Virus record (IMG/VR): IMGVR_UViG_2778261506_000004
Length of the DNA stretch: 6,168 nucleotides
Origin: a virus
Taxonomy: Duplodnaviria > Heunggongvirae > Uroviricota > Caudoviricetes
Direction: 5' to 3' (one strand)
Within the stretch, counting starts at the first letter, position 1, and each line of letters starts with the position of its first letter. The translations under genes were made by a program, and so were the position numbers. The notes below the pieces were generated by a model, which saw only the letters and a list, made by a program, of their open reading frames with translations, had not been told where the DNA came from and made no database searches. This document shows, piece by piece, positions 103 to 6,168 of this stretch.

Positions 103-309
103 AAACCGGAAATAACGCCAGAAATGGTGGAAAAAATAGCCTAAATAGGCTGATTCGATGTGTTTGCGGGAAAAAAATCGGCCCAGATCCGCGAAATTTT
201 AATCAACGAGTCAGCTTGGGAAGAAATGACCTGCTTATTCGCACCTTCCTTAGCTCTTTAACAATCTGGTCCCCATCAACAAGTAACTGATAACTTGAGG
301 AGGTGTGAA

Positions 310-516
310 ATGCACAAAACAGAACCCAAAATCGTCGCGCCCGGATACACAAATGAGGAAATTTACGAGTGGATGGCAAAGAAGCTGGCAGCTATAAACC
401 AGCTTCGTGAAGTGCTGTCTTATCGACAGGAAACAATAGACTCCTTAAAAAAACTGGATCAGGAAATCACGGTTTTATCACAGGATGTTACTTTAGATAT
501 TGTGCAGACAAATTAG
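310..516 (+). CDS. Small hypothetical phage protein, 68 aa, predicted helical/coiled-coil (MHKTEPKIVAPGYTNEEIYEWMAKKLAAINQLREV...)
   Basis: ATG at 310 is preceded by a strong Shine-Dalgarno GAGGAGG (297-303) at 6-nt spacing. The ORF track start at 295 is a TTG with no RBS. Stop TAG at 514-516. No family recognised. Confidence 0.55.
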   Translation: MHKTEPKIVAPGYTNEEIYEWMAKKLAAINQLREVLSYRQETIDSLKKLDQEITVLSQDVTLDIVQTN

Positions 517-922
517 GATCCCATTCATTTTCGTCAAAATCATCAAAGTGATGAATTTGTGATCTCCAGTCTCGATAATCTAAAAATTTCTGGGCGGTTA
601 CGCTTATTTTATCAAGTGTGAGTTCATCCTGAATTGAAAGAAGAAGTTCATCAAATTTCATCTCATTAATCTGTTTTGGCATCCAGTGATGCTTCATCAG
701 AATAAGGTGAACCAGAGCCTTTTTCCCATTCAACTGATTATAGGGAGTGCCGAATTTCTTCCGGTGCTCATGTAAGACAAGATCCAGAAGAGTAAGTAAT
801 GTTGCCCTTGATTCCACTTTGCTTATTTCGACTGATGACACTACCCCACTGATTTCAATGCCCCGATACTTTCCAACATTTTCACAGTGGGATTTGTACA
901 ACGTGTAGATATTACCGGACAT
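488..922 (-). CDS. Hypothetical protein, 144 aa, encoded antisense to the surrounding + strand operon; candidate lysogeny-expressed moron or exclusion gene
   Basis: ATG (complement of 920-922) is preceded on the minus strand by AAGGA at about 7-nt spacing; stop is the complement of 488-490. Its 3' end overlaps the 310..516 gene convergently by 29 bp. Near the C-terminus the string RDWRSQIHH gives an R-x6-H spacing that is loosely HEPN-like; this is weak and unverified. Confidence 0.55.
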   Translation of the reverse strand: MSGNIYTLYKSHCENVGKYRGIEISGVVSSVEISKVESRATLLTLLDLVLHEHRKKFGTPYNQLNGKKALVHLILMKHHWMPKQINEMKFDELLLSIQDELTLDKISVTAQKFLDYRDWRSQIHHFDDFDENEWDPNLSAQYLK

Positions 923-937
923 TTCTTTTCCTTTTGC

Positions 938-989
938 GTTGTTGGGGATAACCAGATTAACCGAATCCTTGTTGTTGGGGAATAACCAG
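938..989. repeat. Tandem imperfect direct repeat: GTTGTTGGGGATAACCAG (938-955) and GTTGTTGGGGAATAACCAG (971-989), about 33 bp centre to centre
   Basis: Read directly from the sequence; the two copies differ by one inserted A. They lie 16 to 70 bp upstream of the minus-strand gene start, i.e. in its promoter or leader region. On the minus strand each copy contains TTATCCCCA / TTATTCCCC, a partial resemblance to a DnaA-box TTATNCACA. Confidence 0.6.
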
Positions 990-1206
990 GTCCACCTCGC
1001 CTGATGTGGCTAAAAGCAGGCACATAACAGCTAAGTATTTTCAACCAGAGAGAATCCTTAGCGTTGTGGTGAATGCTGCTCAGCGCACGCGGGTTAAGGT
1101 TGAGGCTGACAGTCGACCTTCTGTGGATACCCACCCGCCTGGTGTGCAACCTTCGCCAGGCACCGGGAGGCACCCGGCACCACAACTTTATGCTGTGTGT
1201 AGTCTT

Positions 1207-1253
1207 GGCGGTACCAGCTTGTACCCTTGCTTCCGGCTGGTACCGTCCTTTTT
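1207..1253 (+). terminator. Candidate intrinsic terminator or attenuator hairpin: 10-bp perfect stem CGGTACCAGC (1209-1218) / GCTGGTACCG (1236-1245), 17-nt loop, followed by a T5 run (1249-1253)
   Basis: Perfect inverted repeat followed by TCCTTTTT on the + strand only; the minus strand has no T-run after the hairpin. It sits about 140 nt upstream of the 1391 start codon inside a GC-rich region with no ORF. The loop is longer than in a typical terminator. Confidence 0.4.
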
Positions 1254-1390
1254 ACAAAACAGAGAAGAGCATCACCGGACGACGGGCTCATAACTCAATC
1301 CATCCGGGCGGCTGCCACCGCAGGTGTTCTTCTCTGTTTTGTGGAGAAACTAATCGGCCTTGCAGGGTCGATATGATGAGGAGCAGCAAA

Positions 1391-1753
1391 ATGGCTAGCG
1401 AACGCAGTACTGATGTGCAGGCATTTATCGGGGAGCTGGACGGCGGCGTATTTGAAACCAAAATCGGCGCAGTTCTCAGTGAAGTCGCTTCCGGTGTGAT
1501 GAACACGAAAACCAAAGGTAAGGTCTCACTCAACCTGGAAATCGAACCATTTGATGAGAACCGAGTGAAAATCAAACACAAACTCTCATATGTTCGCCCG
1601 ACTAACCGCGGGAAAATTTCTGAAGAAGACACCACCGAAACGCCGATGTATGTCAATCGCGGTGGTCGCCTGACTATTCTGCAGGAAGACCAGGGACAAT
1701 TACTGACTCTTGCCGGTGAACCTGACGGAAAACTCCGCGCAGCAGGTCATTAA
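1391..1753 (+). CDS. Hypothetical phage early protein, 120 aa (YfdP-like by size and position in a CPS-53/KplE1-type cassette; identity from memory, unverified)
   Basis: ATG at 1391 is preceded by GAGGAG (1378-1383) at 7-nt spacing. The ORF track's longer version from 1073 translates to an Arg/Pro/Cys-rich, non-protein-like N-terminal extension across the GC-rich region and is rejected. Stop TAA at 1751-1753. Confidence 0.7.
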   Translation: MASERSTDVQAFIGELDGGVFETKIGAVLSEVASGVMNTKTKGKVSLNLEIEPFDENRVKIKHKLSYVRPTNRGKISEEDTTETPMYVNRGGRLTILQEDQGQLLTLAGEPDGKLRAAGH

Positions 1754-1818
1754 TATCGTTCTTAATTAACTGATTATTTATCTCATCACTGAATATCTTT
1801 ATATAGTGAGGACTTATT

Positions 1819-2643
1819 ATGTCTCAGAACTTAGACGCAACCGCAATTAATCAAATCCATGCTATTATTTCTGCTCAGGGTGTTAATGAAATTATCAGTA
1901 AGATTGGTGCCGATGCTGTAGCATTGCCTGAGAATTTCCGCATTCATGATCTGGAAAAATTTAATTTAAATCGCTTCCGTTTCCGTGGTGCGCTTTCCAC
2001 TGCCAGCATCGATGACTTTACCCGTTATTCTAAAGATCTTGCAGATGAAGGCACCCGCTGCTTTATCGATGCTGATAATATGCGTGCCGTCAGTGTGCTT
2101 AACCTGGGTACTATTGATGAACCAGGTCACGCAGATAACACCGCCACTCTCAAACTGAAAAAGACAGCACCGTTCTCTGCACTGTTGTCTGTTAACAGCG
2201 AGCGTAACTCCCAGAAGTCACTGGCAGAATGGATTGAAGACTGGGCCGACTACCTTGTGGGTTTTGATGCTAATGGTGACGCTATCCAGGCAACAAAAGC
2301 GGCTGCGGCTGTCCGTAAAATCACGATTGAAGCAAACCAGACCGCTGATTTTGAAGATAATGACTTCAGCGGCAAACGCTCCCTGATGGAGTCTGTCGAA
2401 GCGAAGACCAAAGACATTATGCCAGTGGCATTTGAATTTAAATGCGTTCCGTTTGAAGGTCTGAAAGAACGTTCTTTTAAATTACGCCTCAGCATTATCA
2501 CTGGCGATCGTCCTGTACTTGTTCTGCGCATTATTCAGCTGGAGGCGGTGCAGGAAGAAATGGCTAACGAATTTCGCGATCTGCTTGTTGAGAAATTCAA
2601 AGACAGCAAAGTAGAAACCTTTATTGGTACTTTCACCGCCTGA
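1819..2643 (+). CDS. yfdQ: YfdQ-like phage protein (DUF2303 family), 274 aa
   Basis: ATG at 1819 with GTGAGGA RBS (about 1806-1812); long clean ORF with a protein-like composition. Size and gene order (120 aa, 274 aa, then an HD-domain protein) match my recollection of the E. coli K-12 CPS-53 yfdP-yfdQ-yfdR block. The symbol is from memory, not a search. Confidence 0.75.
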
Positions 2644-2655
2644 TTTGATTACTGC

Positions 2656-2677
2656 AAATGCCCCTGCGGGGGCATTT
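2656..2677 (+). terminator. GC-rich hairpin between the yfdQ-like and yfdR-like genes: AAATGCCCC-TGCG-GGGGCATTT; possible weak terminator or RNA-stabilising stem-loop
   Basis: 9-bp perfect inverted repeat with a 4-nt loop, 13 nt after the yfdQ-like stop. The U-tract is only the TTT inside the stem tail plus AT, so termination would be weak or partial. Confidence 0.3.
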
Positions 2678-2771
2678 ATGGAAACGTAATTAACTCAATA
2701 ATCTCCGGATGGTGAGGGCTTCCTTTTACCAGAATTCAGTGCGGTGCAGCGCAAATAACGTGGAGAACAAA

Positions 2772-3320
2772 ATGTCATTTATTAAAACTTTTTCTGGGAA
2801 GCATTTTTATTATGACAGGATAAATAAAGACGACATCGTTATTAACGATATCGCGGTTTCCCTTTCAAATATCTGTCGCTTTGCAGGACATCTTTCACAC
2901 TTCTACAGCGTCGCCCAACATGCGGTTCTTTGCAGCCAACTGGTACCGCAGGAATTTGCTTTTGAAGCGTTAATGCATGATGCAACAGAAGCGTATTGCC
3001 AGGACATCCCCGCTCCACTGAAACGCCTTCTTCCTGACTATAAACAGATGGAAGAAAAAATAGACGCCGTAATCCGTGAGAAATACGGGTTACCCCCGGT
3101 TATGAGTACGCCCGTGAAATATGCCGATCTCATCATGCTGGCAACCGAACGCCGCGATCTCGGGCTTGATGATGGCTCTTTCTGGCCTGTACTGGAAGGC
3201 ATCCCGGCAACAGAGATGTTCAACGTGATTCCACTGGCACCGGGCCATGCCTACGGGATGTTTATGGAACGCTTTAAAGAGCTGCATAAGATGCATAAAC
3301 AATCCAGACAGCGAAATTAA
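2772..3320 (+). CDS. yfdR: HD-domain phosphohydrolase, YfdR/YfbR-like putative 5'-deoxynucleotidase, about 182 aa
   Basis: ATG at 2772 (MSFIKTF...) is preceded by GGAGA at about 6-nt spacing; the ORF track start at 2709 has no RBS and is rejected. HD-domain signature is visible: ...AGHLSH..., ...LMHDATEAY..., ...CQD... (H ... HD ... D). Stop TAA at 3318-3320. Confidence 0.8.
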   Translation: MSFIKTFSGKHFYYDRINKDDIVINDIAVSLSNICRFAGHLSHFYSVAQHAVLCSQLVPQEFAFEALMHDATEAYCQDIPAPLKRLLPDYKQMEEKIDAVIREKYGLPPVMSTPVKYADLIMLATERRDLGLDDGSFWPVLEGIPATEMFNVIPLAPGHAYGMFMERFKELHKMHKQSRQRN

Positions 3321-3363
3321 CTAGTGAAATAGTTTTGTAGCAAAAGAAATGAGGTTATCAAAA

Positions 3364-3609
3364 ATGCTTCAAATGCTGACACTTGAGGAATGGGCTGCGG
3401 AAAAATACAGAAGTAATCCTCCAAGCGTGTCCACATTGCGTCGTTATGCTAAGCAGAATTTATTTTGTCCACCGGCAATGAAACAAGGTCGACTATGGCG
3501 AGTGCGTGAGGACGCAGAGTTAGTTGGGGAATTAGTTACTCCTGTCATCAAGAAAAATGATTCTATTATTCTACAAAGGATTTTAAGTAATGGCAGCCAG
3601 ACCACGTAA
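3364..3609 (+). CDS. xis: Excisionase (lambda Xis family), about 81 aa
   Basis: The translation MLQMLTLEEW...RRYAKQNLFCPPAMKQGR... parallels lambda Xis MYLTLQEW...RRWVRECRIFPPPVKDGR... as I recall it. GAGG (3351-3354) lies 9 nt before ATG 3364; alternative starts are 3349 and 3373. The 3' end overlaps the int start by 20 nt, as in lambda. Confidence 0.85.
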   Translation: MLQMLTLEEWAAEKYRSNPPSVSTLRRYAKQNLFCPPAMKQGRLWRVREDAELVGELVTPVIKKNDSIILQRILSNGSQTT

Positions 3610-4717
3610 AAATAATGTTTCAGTCCCGAACTTGTATCCGCTTTATAGTAGAAAAGTAAATAAAGTCTATTGGCGATATAAACATCCTGTGACCGGGAAG
3701 TTTCATTCTTTAGGCACAAACGAAGCTGAAGCCATTGCTATTGCCACTGAGGCAAATTCACGCCTGGCTGAGCAAAGAACCCGGCAGATTATGGCTATCA
3801 GTGACAGGATCGCAACCAGCAAAGGAAAAGCAATCACAACGTCAACCTGGTTAGATCGCTATCAAGCAATCCAGGATGACAGACTGGAAAGTGGCGATAT
3901 AAAGCTAAACACCTATAAACAGAAAGCCAAACCAGTATCCTTGCTCAGGGAACGAGCAGGAATGAAATTAATTTCATCAGTTGATGTAAGGGATATAGCA
4001 CAATTACTTGACGAGTATATCACTGCCGGGCAACCGAGGATGGCGCAAGTAGTCCGCTCCGTTCTAATTGATGTATTCAAGGAGGCACAACACTATGGGG
4101 AAGTCCCTCCGGGCTATAATCCAGCACTGGCAACCAAACAACCCAGAAGAAAAATTACCCGACAACGGTTAAGTCTTGAAGAATGGCAAAAAATCTTTGA
4201 TATCGCAGATGCACGCCATCGTTATATGGGGAATGCCATGCTGTTAGCACTGGTTACCGGCCAACGGTTAGGTGATATCTCACGTATGAAATTTAGCGAT
4301 ATTTGGGATGATCATCTTCACGTCATCCAAGAAAAAACCGGGAGCAAAATCGCCATCCCGCTTTCCCTTCGCCTCAATGCAATTAACTGGAGTTTACGCG
4401 ATGTAGTAGCCCGCTGCCGTGACTATGCAGTCAGCCCATACCTTGTACATTTTTTTCGTACTACTTCACAGGCTGAACGTGGCGCGCAAGTAAAAGCCAA
4501 TACATTGACGATGAATTTCAGTAAAGCGAGGGATTTAGCAGGCATTGACTGGGGTGAAGGTTCGCCCGCCACATTCCATGAACAAAGATCTTTATCTGAG
4601 CGACTTTACGAAGCTCAGGGCGTCGACACCCAAAAACTTCTGGGACATAAATCGCCTAACCAGACAGCTAAATACCATGATGATCGTGGTAAGGAATGGG
4701 CAAAAATCAAGGTTTGA
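3590..4717 (+). CDS. int: Site-specific tyrosine recombinase, phage lambda Int family integrase, 375 aa
   Basis: N-terminal arm-binding region resembles lambda Int (...VPNLY...VTGKFHSLG...). The C-terminal catalytic domain has the lambda-like motifs VTGQRLGD (Arg), PATFHEQRSLSERLY (His-x-x-Arg), LLGHKS (His) and AKYHDDRGKEW (Tyr nucleophile). AAGGA RBS lies 9 nt upstream. Confidence 0.95.
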   Translation: MAARPRKNNVSVPNLYPLYSRKVNKVYWRYKHPVTGKFHSLGTNEAEAIAIATEANSRLAEQRTRQIMAISDRIATSKGKAITTSTWLDRYQAIQDDRLESGDIKLNTYKQKAKPVSLLRERAGMKLISSVDVRDIAQLLDEYITAGQPRMAQVVRSVLIDVFKEAQHYGEVPPGYNPALATKQPRRKITRQRLSLEEWQKIFDIADARHRYMGNAMLLALVTGQRLGDISRMKFSDIWDDHLHVIQEKTGSKIAIPLSLRLNAINWSLRDVVARCRDYAVSPYLVHFFRTTSQAERGAQVKANTLTMNFSKARDLAGIDWGEGSPATFHEQRSLSERLYEAQGVDTQKLLGHKSPNQTAKYHDDRGKEWAKIKV

Positions 4718-4736
4718 ATTTTACAAAATTGAATGA

Positions 4737-4756
4737 TACTGTATATGCATACAGAA
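4737..4756. promoter_or_regulatory. Candidate LexA (SOS) box TACTGTATATGCATACAGAA (CTGT-N8-ACAG, AT-rich spacer)
   Basis: Matches the E. coli LexA consensus TACTG(TA)5CAGTA at all invariant CTGT/ACAG positions. Lies in the 115-bp intergenic region between the int stop and the downstream operon, about 80 bp upstream of ATG 4833. Confidence 0.55.
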
Positions 4757-4775
4757 TTGAAAGAAAATTAAGCTC

Positions 4776-4803
4776 TTGAAAGTGCTTGGTTTTATGGAAT
4801 AAT
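4776..4803 (+). promoter_or_regulatory. Putative sigma70 promoter for the downstream operon: -35 TTGAAA (4776-4781), 16-nt spacer, -10 AATAAT (4798-4803)
   Basis: Hexamers and spacing read by eye. A second TTGAAA at 4757-4762 and a TTGAAT at 4729-4734 are alternatives; the latter would place the LexA box inside the spacer. Not experimentally defined. Confidence 0.3.
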
Positions 4804-4832
4804 GAAACCAAATAGTTTACAGGAGTTTTCTT

Positions 4833-5729
4833 ATGCAGTTGTATGCCTTACGTGTGTTAATGAGACCGCGCGATCCAGACCTCTTTTCGAAAGGAGCTGT
4901 TCAGAAAGATATCTCTCATTTTGAAAATGCTATGGTTGTCGCTGCAAAAAATTTACACATGACGTCATCAACACCTTCCGTTCATAAGAAAACTAGTTAC
5001 ACCCTGAAATTGAGCATAAAACCTACTGATGGTGTTATGGCTGGAGTCATATCAAAGCTGCAAAAGATTAAAGGACATGATAAAGACTTTCGAGAGTACG
5101 ATGTAGACAACTATCCACCTATCGTATGGATTTGGGACAAAGTAGAGCAGGTGTTACTGGTTGAGAGGAAAACCGCTGTTTTCAAGGATGCGCAACAAGT
5201 TGCTAAAGCATTCGAAGATCTAGCCAATAACGACTATTTGGCTCAGTTAGGACTTAGAATATTTATAGAGCCTTGTCTTGAAATGGAAGATTTTTGGTCA
5301 GAATACCATAGGCTTCAATTTATCGACAAAGTCAGCTTTACGCTGATTACTCCGAATATCTTCGGAAGCAGTAAGCAAGCGTTAACCAATGATTTACGGA
5401 AGCTTGAAAAAGATACCAATGCAAATACTGTGACCACTATTTTTGAAAACAAAGATGGCAATTTGAAACTCAAAGGTTCTCATTGGGCTGAGACTCTTGT
5501 TGACTGGGTCAAAGATGGTGGCGGGTCATGGTTGATTAAAGGACGTAAGACACTCAAGTCAAAATCTACTACGGTATCCAGTAATCAGACAGCCAAAATC
5601 GTGCTGATCGAAGGTGAGATATCAGAAATTGAACTTGATGGCTACTCAGCAAATGATATTAAAGAGATCATAGCATTACATCAAAACAGGTATACGTTCA
5701 AAAATGCAAAATCTAACTGTCTGGATTAA
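4833..5729 (+). CDS. Hypothetical soluble protein, 298 aa, no recognisable family; first gene of a two-gene operon
   Basis: ATG at 4833 is preceded by AGGAG (4821-4825) at 7-nt spacing. Long ORF in a visibly AT-richer region than the upstream phage genes. No Walker A, HD, HEPN or other motif was recognised by eye. Confidence 0.8.
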   Translation: MQLYALRVLMRPRDPDLFSKGAVQKDISHFENAMVVAAKNLHMTSSTPSVHKKTSYTLKLSIKPTDGVMAGVISKLQKIKGHDKDFREYDVDNYPPIVWIWDKVEQVLLVERKTAVFKDAQQVAKAFEDLANNDYLAQLGLRIFIEPCLEMEDFWSEYHRLQFIDKVSFTLITPNIFGSSKQALTNDLRKLEKDTNANTVTTIFENKDGNLKLKGSHWAETLVDWVKDGGGSWLIKGRKTLKSKSTTVSSNQTAKIVLIEGEISEIELDGYSANDIKEIIALHQNRYTFKNAKSNCLD

Positions 5730-6168
5730 AGCTATAGCTACCTTCTTTTTGTGCTTAGCATTAGCATCGACTGATAAAACCATTTATACCTTACTTGAGC
5801 AGGCTTCTGCTGGAGTAATAGGTTCAATACTTGGAGGTATTGCCGCAGGTATCTCCGTTATCTTCGGAATTTTGGCTGTCATTAATAAGGGCGAGAAAAG
5901 CACAGACTTTACGGACTATTTAGATAGTTTAGAATTAGATTTGAAATTACTGGTCATGTGTCTGGCAGTAACAATCTTCCTTCCCTATTTACGTAATTAT
6001 GACATACCACTAGTAAATTATCCTCAGCACGAATTTATCCCTTCTAAAGGCAAGCTATTTACTGCTTTAGAACTTTTTGCTATCGTGCTATCTCTTAACC
6101 TCATTGCAGAAGTGATTAGCTGCATGATTTTAGTGGTTAAAAAAAGTTTCAAAATTGAATCAAAGTGA
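5704..6168 (+). CDS. Small integral membrane protein, 154 aa, about four predicted transmembrane helices including a Gly-zipper-like helix (GSILGGIAAGISVIFG)
   Basis: ATG 5704 overlaps the upstream gene by 26 nt in another frame, suggesting translational coupling; its own RBS is weak. Hydrophobic stretches at roughly aa 7-22, 36-60, 80-96 and 118-145. Stop TGA at 6166-6168 is the last codon of the window. Confidence 0.7.
   Translation: MQNLTVWIKAIATFFLCLALASTDKTIYTLLEQASAGVIGSILGGIAAGISVIFGILAVINKGEKSTDFTDYLDSLELDLKLLVMCLAVTIFLPYLRNYDIPLVNYPQHEFIPSKGKLFTALELFAIVLSLNLIAEVISCMILVVKKSFKIESK

Follow-up and report, generated by a model that had tools for sequence, protein, structure and literature searches.

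The present analysis indicates that the yfdP-yfdQ-yfdR cassette and the adjoining xis-int pair very probably form the distal part of a leftward early (pL-type) operon in a lambdoid prophage of Escherichia coli that integrates at icd and is related to e14. The window, that is, the whole stretch of 6,168 nucleotides analyzed here, is the already annotated left arm of a lambda-like E. coli prophage at icd. Many RefSeq E. coli chromosomes carry positions 249–6168 with 100% identity, and on these the genes are named yfdP, yfdQ, yfdR, xisE, and intE. The cassette arrangement is already known, and neither its annotation nor its mosaicism is new. Comparisons with related elements show a real recombination breakpoint at approximately 3281, within the last codons of yfdR. 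The joint is inherited; it is present in approximately 2% of complete E. coli genomes, with sequence divergence across it.

Gene content of the cassette and the integration module

Five closely spaced, co-directional genes (yfdP-yfdQ-yfdR-xis-int) lie on the + strand, 3' of the gene for a LexA-like CI repressor. The operon context runs from the CI (LexA family) gene through a small ORF, the cassette, xis-int, and cargo genes to icd. In the source genome, icd is 2.7 kb downstream, and an integrase remnant lies between. The features are as follows.

1033–1256, + strand: STnc100/PasD-type structured RNA (predicted) just 5' of yfdP, with a terminator-like 3' hairpin and U-run at approximately 1205–1256
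1391–1753, + strand: yfdP, 120 aa; PF27127 on homologues
1819–2643, + strand: yfdQ, 274 aa; DUF2303 (PF10065)
2656–2677, + strand: perfect 9-bp hairpin AAATGCCCC-TGCG-GGGGCATTT without a U-run, directly after the yfdQ stop, read from the sequence
2772–3320 (ORF 2709–3320), + strand: yfdR, 182 aa; HD-domain protein, YfbR-like 5'-deoxynucleotidase by name
3281–3344, no strand assigned: mosaic junction and 64-nt, lineage-specific linker between the yfdR 3' end and e14-type DNA
3364–3609 (alternative start 3349), + strand: xis, 81 aa; lambda/e14-type excisionase, RefSeq start 3364
3590–4717, + strand: int, 375 aa; lambda-family tyrosine integrase of the e14 IntE type
4833–6168, + strand: two-gene cargo between int and icd, encoding a 298-aa orphan and a protein of at least 154 aa

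The sequence-only reading that preceded this work proposed that the first three genes are YfdP/YfdQ/YfdR-like. BLASTP against the K-12 CPS-53 proteins bore this out, with identities of 99.2% for YfdP, 98.2% for YfdQ, and 95.5% over 176 aa for YfdR. YfdP matched phrog_204 (E 1e-49). All of its listed homologues carry PF27127, and this assignment was taken from their precomputed annotation and from the identity to K-12 YfdP. The AF2 model of YfdP (pLDDT 73) consists of a long helix and a curved sheet. A search of the PDB with this model gave no significant structural neighbour, and a profile search of PDB sequences with YfdP also found nothing. An NTF2-like or CaMKII-hub-like reading was discarded as not meaningful (E > 0.02, TM <= 0.32).

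YfdQ matched PF10065 over model positions 2–269 of 269 (305 bits, E 4.7e-91). It also matched PDB entry 9o7m, 'YfdQ Protein' (E 4.8e-44), and the 36 chains in this homologue entry hint at a large homo-oligomer for YfdQ. A literature search found no paper mentioning 9o7m. The AF2 model, built from a 30-sequence alignment (pLDDT 76), gave nothing below E 0.04 by Foldseek against a PDB set without 9o7m, and only other DUF2303 proteins in BFVD. We also considered a hidden recombinase in YfdQ or YfdP. This reading was rejected because neither protein showed structural similarity to the Rad52, RecT, or Red-beta types; the literature also argues against it (PMC12315714). The triad is kept across Enterobacterales. 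YfdP and YfdQ are very common proteins to which no function can be assigned.

The start of yfdR at 2772 is the K-12-equivalent and RefSeq start. Its product matched phrog_318 'deoxyribonucleoside 5' monophosphate phosphatase' (E 5e-108) and PDB 2gz4 (E 2.6e-13), with an HD doublet at residues 69–70. PF12917 scored 24.9 bits, just short of its 25.9 cut-off, and HD_3 matched at E 0.005. Since the NCBIfam YfbR equivalog model scored 20.5, far under its cut-off of 122, YfdR is a relative of YfbR and not its equivalog. The HD protein had been described as uncharacterized, which does not hold: RefSeq names it as a 5'-deoxynucleotidase, and YfdR has been shown to bind DnaA (PMC4776307). In K-12, the multicopy phenotype needs both yfdQ and yfdR, yfdQR without yfdS or yfdT gave no DnaA-related phenotype, and the deletion of yfdQRST had no effect (PMC4776307). 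Since the window is without yfdS and yfdT, a role in host replication may not apply here.

The proposed lambda-type Xis overlapping a lambda-family Int was also confirmed, including its coordinates, and the overlap is 20 nt. Xis matched PF07825 Exc (E 6.2e-12, above the cut-off) and phrog_629 excisionase (E 9e-31). Int matched the full PF09003 Arm-DNA-bind_1 model at residues 1–73 (E 7.6e-37) and PF00589 (E 9.5e-19); its catalytic residues R226, K249, H330, R333, H353, and Y362 align with R212, K235, H308, R311, H333, and Y342 of lambda Int. The closest relationship is with e14 (96.3% identity to XisE and 93.6% to IntE), against 40% to lambda Xis and 35.6% to lambda Int. This e14 type, and the e14 match at 992–1380, had been missed in the sequence-only reading. 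No match of Xis or Int to TorI, IntS, or SfV Int was found by BLASTP. By analogy with IntE, to which Int is 94% identical and whose element e14 adjoins icd, Int probably integrates and excises the prophage at icd. A tRNA or tmRNA target inside the window was ruled out because a search of the window found none; the target, icd, lies outside it.

The cargo proteins had no Pfam, PHROG, NCBIfam, or PADLOC matches. The 298-aa protein has 38 homologue clusters, all without a protein name, and the named genera are all Enterobacterales. By eye, the protein of at least 154 aa is hydrophobic (membrane-like). PADLOC gave zero matches for any protein of the window, and a defence or anti-defence assignment was therefore dropped.

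The junction between yfdR and xis

Homology to CPS-53, SfV, SfIV, mEp460, and Stx2c phages always ends at 3280/3281. The matching spans are 1372–3280 for CPS-53 (96.9% DNA identity), 992–3281 for SfV (97.6%), and 1205–3281 for mEp460. In contrast, e14 DNA matches the window at 992–1380 (89%) and 3345–4704 (86.6%), with nothing between. The C-terminal tail of YfdR (6 aa; last ~13 codons) is unlike the K-12 and SfV alleles. Found in 110 of 5426 E. coli genomes at 87–100% identity, the linker never occurred outside the yfdR-to-xisE context. The cassette had been described as fused directly to xis-int. The genes do adjoin; however, 43 nt lie between the yfdR stop and the annotated xis start.

Our census covered 5426 complete E. 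coli genomes. The direct yfdR-to-xisE joint of the window is a minority arrangement, found in 109–110 of these genomes and in one of 80 viral loci, whereas the usual yfdR-yfdS-yfdT continuation was present in approximately 2280 genomes. The e14 layout, a direct joint without the cassette, was present in 316. The yfdR region or the upstream RNA region was matched in approximately 2000–3000.

The broader gene order is nevertheless normal. yfdPQR is a conserved three-gene unit, with 96–98% DNA identity to CPS-53, SfV, SfIV, mEp460, and Stx2c phages and 55–64% protein identity to prophages of Klebsiella (also adjoining icd) and Yersinia, which have the same general architecture. The family norm in the early-left operon is cI, yfdPQR, zero to six small, variable ORFs, and xis-int, as observed in SfV and in the Klebsiella and Yersinia prophages, and yfdP/Q/R-type clusters are frequent in lambdoid early-left operons (PMC12315714). 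The proposed module exchange thus stands as far as a breakpoint at approximately 3281 is concerned; however, since the general order is the family norm, the junction represents ordinary lambdoid mosaicism rather than a special fusion.

The joint may instead have arisen without exchange, through an internal deletion that removed yfdS, yfdT, and the remaining ORFs separating yfdR from xis in a phage that already carried an e14-type xis-int pair. We consider this rather unlikely. Related Klebsiella icd prophages have yfdPQR followed by five small ORFs and then Exc and an Int that is 60% identical to that of the window, which makes an ancestor with intervening genes and an e14-type Int plausible. 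The region also occurs in deleted forms (RNA-to-yfdR, and RNA-to-xisE as in e14), and the 64-nt linker could be a leftover of deleted DNA. In variants with yfdPQ deleted, the right breakpoint (2660) falls inside the hairpin at 2656–2677; no direct repeat or microhomology that accounts for these variants was found in the intergenic regions of the window. However, yfdPQR is 96–98% identical to SfV/CPS-53 DNA, whereas xis-int reaches only ~86% identity with its nearest K-12 relative and has no relationship to the integration genes of SfV and CPS-53. Such an abrupt shift in relatedness, placed exactly at 3281, is the mark of recombination between lineages. Deletion and exchange are also not mutually exclusive.

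It is possible, but doubtful, that yfdPQR was inserted into an e14-like backbone by a homologous left crossover in 992–1380 and an illegitimate right join near xis. Since K-12 e14 also has 992–1380, just 5' of yfdP, in addition to 3345–4704, the window may be read as e14-type DNA on both sides of the cassette, and the RNA region directly abuts xisE in e14. This region is also the constant left border of a slot of variable content ahead of xis-int. This slot is empty in e14; in some phages it is occupied by yfdR with additional genes, in the window by yfdPQR, and in SfV and CPS-53 by yfdPQRST and others. However, window 992–1380 is 97.6% identical to SfV and only 89% to e14, and the left crossover was therefore not at 1380 in the lineage of the window. 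The e14 layout is equally well explained by the deletion of a cassette.

We consider it very unlikely that the cassette works as a module for anti-defence or nucleotide pools whose adjacency to xis-int is functionally required, for example, through an HD enzyme tuning dNTP/dNMP pools. Across genera, the three P-Q-R genes stay together and show similar divergence, and YfdR is a predicted HD phosphohydrolase. However, most relatives have variable genes between the triad and xis-int, and the adjacency is therefore not conserved. Furthermore, PADLOC found nothing, and e14 has the same type of xis-int without the cassette.

We concluded that exchange between lineages at approximately 3281 is the preferred explanation. 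The joint is a well-populated, clean example of lambdoid mosaicism with its breakpoint at a gene end, and has little import beyond correct annotation. Integration modules of at least three unrelated kinds accompany the yfdPQR triad, namely, those of the e14 type (icd) and the SfV type, and IntS/TorI (argW).

The upstream RNA region and expression of the operon

The RNA at 1033–1256 aligned with the full Rfam RF02076 STnc100 model at 41.9 bits (E 1e-6) without reaching the gathering score of 47, and is best described as a putative divergent STnc100 relative. It has an invariant 22-nt core and a closing-stem architecture in common with the wider family, and its fold z-score is -3.85. At least 120 viral contigs contain the core, and both the closing stem and the first hairpin show covariation. 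In 78 of the 80 viral loci, yfdP is preceded by at least the 3' hairpin. RefSeq labels the region 'frameshifted hypothetical protein', and it is annotated as ymfH in K-12 e14. A larger Rfam search at E <= 0.01 did not recover STnc100 in mEp460-type phages or e14; in the former, nothing but the 3' hairpin is left, and the copy in e14 misses the threshold. Beyond being a stand-alone sRNA gene, the RNA might gate leftward read-through into the cassette and excision genes in cis, in the manner of a regulated terminator or leader, and its conserved sequence might also serve as a portable homology patch promoting module exchange, although we regard this combined role as improbable.

Following repressor cleavage, the leftward transcript would probably express the cassette and then Xis and Int, which would free the prophage from icd through tyrosine recombination of the lambda type. 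Early in the cycle, YfdR, perhaps with YfdQ, may act on the host through weak dNMP phosphohydrolase activity and by binding domain I of DnaA, which damps initiation at oriC. The terminator-like hairpin and U-run at approximately 1205–1256, just 5' of yfdP, count against this early-transcript model. A consensus scan of 1391–4717 detected neither a convincing promoter nor a strong + strand terminator, and no N-like antiterminator gene was evident between cI and yfdP.

Comparison with known prophages

CPS-53/KplE1 of K-12, SfV, SfIV, and mEp460 have yfdP-yfdQ-yfdR in the same order and spacing as the window, likewise in the leftward early operon after cI, and their cassette proteins are 95–100% identical to those of the window. 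However, CPS-53/SfV-type elements carry yfdS and yfdT, and more, before the excisionase, and their recombination genes (TorI/IntS at argW in CPS-53, and SfV xis/int in SfV) are unrelated to those of the window. The layout of CPS-53 had been described correctly: intS occupies the argW end, and yfdP-Q-R-S-T-ypdJ-torI the other; int of the window is beside the cassette, whereas the CPS-53 integrase lies at the opposite prophage end. The presence of yfdS, yfdT, and ypdJ between yfdR and torI had been omitted.

Lambda xis-int encodes the same domains (Exc, and an arm-binding N-domain and catalytic domain with the six residues), with xis likewise upstream of int and overlapping it at the end of the pL operon. 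However, lambda Xis and Int are only 40 and 36% identical to those of the window, attB lies between gal and bio rather than in icd, and xis-int is preceded by ea and b-region genes and exo-bet-gam instead of yfdPQR.

e14, which resides in icd of K-12, is closer. Its Xis and Int are 96 and 94% identical to those of the window, and it has the same 20-nt overlap, icd site, and upstream RNA region ('ymfH'). In contrast to the window, e14 is without yfdPQR, and the slot between int and icd carries ymfD, ymfE, and lit instead of two orphan genes. The closest phage is Escherichia phage vB_EcoM-689R6 (ON470584), which is 96.5% identical over window 249–4699, matches the window in its arrangement from the cI side to yfdPQR-xis-int, and adjoins icd. 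It differs in its cargo after int, which encodes a DUF262 protein and a hypothetical protein.

Genomic source and gene content

Positions 249-6168 of the window are 100% identical to many RefSeq Escherichia coli chromosomes. The genes yfdP, yfdQ, yfdR, xisE and intE are named as such in RefSeq, and both annotations and descriptions of the region already exist. In NZ_CP116241, the window corresponds to the left arm of a lambdoid prophage that looks complete. The cassette (yfdP-yfdQ-yfdR) is preceded by terminase, lysis genes, Q, replication genes, cro and a LexA-like cI; cI is followed by a small ORF, an opposite-strand ECs1072-family gene, then the cassette and xis-int, and lastly two cargo genes, an integrase remnant and icd. 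The closest phage record, vB_EcoM-689R6 (96.5% over window 249-4699), shares this layout and also adjoins icd. Between the cargo and icd are an integrase pseudogene remnant (source genome L001, 18182-18391, approximately 260 nt past the window end) and a hypothetical gene. This suggests that the attachment site once held an older e14-like element, since decayed.

The window contains nine credible genes, five of which are located within 1391-4717, all on the plus strand.

Genes of the cassette and recombination pair (window coordinates, strand, description)
1391-1753, +, yfdP, 120 aa
1819-2643, +, yfdQ, 274 aa; DUF2303 (Pfam, E 4.7e-91)
2709-3320, +, yfdR ORF (182 aa from the K-12/RefSeq-equivalent start at 2772); YfbR-like and HD matches near threshold (Pfam)
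3364-3609, +, xis (alternative start 3349); Exc, PF07825 (Pfam)
3590-4717, +, int; lambda Arm-DNA-binding and Phage_integrase domains (Pfam)

PHROGs assignments were concordant with Pfam for these proteins. The gaps are 65 nt (yfdP/yfdQ), 128 nt (yfdQ/yfdR) and 43 nt (yfdR/xis), with a 20-nt overlap between xis and int. Between cI and yfdP, no N-like antiterminator gene was evident; a small 68-aa ORF follows cI (310-516, plus strand), and its 3' end is overlapped by the phage-associated ECs1072-family gene (488-922, minus strand). A perfect 9-bp hairpin (AAATGCCCC/GGGGCATTT, loop TGCG, no U-run) was noted at 2656-2677, 13 nt past the yfdQ stop. In natural yfdPQ-deleted variants (loci L008, L030, L035, L046 and L107), the right breakpoint, 2660, is inside this hairpin.

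Sequences of the E. coli K-12 cryptic prophages CPS-53 (KplE1) and e14 and of the phages SfV, mEp460 and lambda were retrieved, and the window proteins were compared with theirs. YfdP, YfdQ and YfdR showed 99.2, 98.2 and 95.5% identity, respectively, to the K-12 CPS-53 proteins, the last over 176 aa with an unlike tail. Xis was 96.3% identical to e14 XisE and 40% to lambda Xis, while Int was 93.6% identical to e14 IntE and 35.6% to lambda Int, with 6/6 lambda Int catalytic residues conserved. Xis and Int did not match TorI, IntS or the SfV integrase in the protein comparison. In CPS-53, intS lies at the argW end, with yfdP-Q-R-S-T-ypdJ-torI at the opposite one. The sequence-only reading had described a YfdP/YfdQ/YfdR-like block followed by an overlapping lambda-type xis-int pair, and its account of the CPS-53 layout was correct; its observation was confirmed in full and its interpretation was partly supported.

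Function of the cassette and the cargo slot

The HD-domain protein had been regarded as uncharacterised, which is not the case: YfdR carries the name 5'-deoxynucleotidase and has been shown to bind DnaA (PMC4776307). Multicopy yfdQ and yfdR, with yfdS or yfdT, inhibited initiation at oriC; yfdQR by itself was insufficient and yfdP was dispensable (PMC4776307). Since the window lacks yfdS and yfdT, this phenotype may not apply to it. The one new lead on YfdQ is PDB entry 9o7m ("YfdQ Protein"), which matches the window YfdQ (E 4.8e-44). Because the entry contains 36 chains of a single 274-residue sequence, this relative suggests that YfdQ forms a large homo-oligomer; a literature search found no paper on 9o7m. 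AF2 models of YfdQ (pLDDT 76) and YfdP (pLDDT 73) had no significant PDB neighbours.

In our favoured mechanism, yfdPQR-xis-int is an early-left operon, and the cassette products would act on the host soon after induction. Xis and Int, encoded after the cassette, would then excise the prophage from icd. By homology, the recombination part of this mechanism is solid.

The slot between int and icd carries a cargo of two genes.

Cargo genes (window coordinates, description)
4833-5729, gene 1, 298-aa orphan protein
5704-6168, gene 2, overlaps gene 1; product hydrophobic (membrane-like) as judged by eye

The 298-aa protein had no match in Pfam, PHROG, NCBIfam or PADLOC. Its homologues form 38 clusters, and every named one is from an Enterobacterales genus. 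In e14, the slot instead holds ymfD, ymfE and lit, and in phage 689R6 a DUF262 gene; therefore, it is likely a defence-gene hotspot with an uncharacterised occupant.

Structured RNA upstream of the cassette

An STnc100/PasD-type structured RNA (1033-1256, within a conserved block at 992-1380) lies outside the finding. The full Rfam STnc100 model aligned (E 1e-6) at 41.9 bits, under the gathering threshold of 47. This region folds better than shuffled sequence (z = -3.85); at its 3' end, a terminator-like hairpin precedes a U-run. It is annotated as a "frameshifted hypothetical protein" in RefSeq, and the e14 copy as ymfH in K-12. A 2026 preprint tied STnc100 to PasD prophage sRNAs.

An invariant 22-nt core, CACCGGGAGGCACCCGGCACCA, was present in at least 120 viral contigs (35 sequence clusters); its flanks have diverged beyond BLAST, and the closing stem and first hairpin show compensatory changes. 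The genes downstream of the core are heterogeneous: hydrophobic small ORFs, yfdP, yfdR, xis and, in 24 cases, an unannotated 681-aa ORF, whose product we guess by eye, as a sequence-only candidate, to be a NanS-p-like esterase. The RNA region is the constant left border of a variable slot ahead of xis-int. This position is the reason for reading the RNA as a cis-acting element that gates read-through, which we consider improbable.

Unlike the window, relatives of the mEp460 type carry genes for C4 antisense RNA and IsrK RNA side by side, each exceeding its Rfam gathering score (L005 [mEp460], 2324-2512; L128, 2711-2899; L137, 2730-2918). In mEp460, both are inside an annotated transcriptional-regulator gene, noted there as a putative antirepressor.

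The joint between yfdR and xisE

The window was compared with the reference elements by BLASTN, which gave the homology blocks below.

Homology blocks (window coordinates, element, identity)
1372-3280, CPS-53, 96.9%
992-3281, SfV, 97.6%
1205-3281, mEp460, 97.2%
992-1380, e14, 89%
3345-4704, e14, 86.6%

Every phage match to the cassette ends at 3280/3281, approximately 13 codons ahead of the yfdR stop; at the equivalent position in K-12 and SfV, yfdS begins, overlapping yfdR. The linker at 3282-3344 is confined to the yfdR-to-xisE context and was found in 110 of 5426 complete genomes, one copy each, with 87-100% identity. The joint is therefore old and inherited; neither misassembly nor a single isolated event accounts for it.

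The 3' part of yfdR was present in 3051 genomes, only 109 of which run on into xisE; yfdR continues into yfdS/T in 2280 genomes. In 316 genomes, the upstream RNA region directly abuts xisE, as in e14. Among 80 viral contigs with near-identical yfdQ, the P-Q-R order is invariant and the content after yfdR varies, with yfdR-XisE-IntE in only one.

The mosaic junction proposed from the sequence is real but ordinary. It was made by boundary recombination of the kind that defines lambdoid phages. Prophages of Klebsiella and Yersinia also carry the triad, downstream of a Peptidase_S24 repressor gene (YfdP 55-60%, YfdQ 57-59% and YfdR 60-64% identity to the window proteins); next come 2-5 variable small ORFs, with Exc and a lambda-type Int beyond them. 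In Klebsiella, the element likewise adjoins icd and encodes an Int with 60% identity to that of the window. Therefore, the general order is the family norm and the arrangement is not unusual; the window is its minimal version, with zero ORFs between yfdR and xis.
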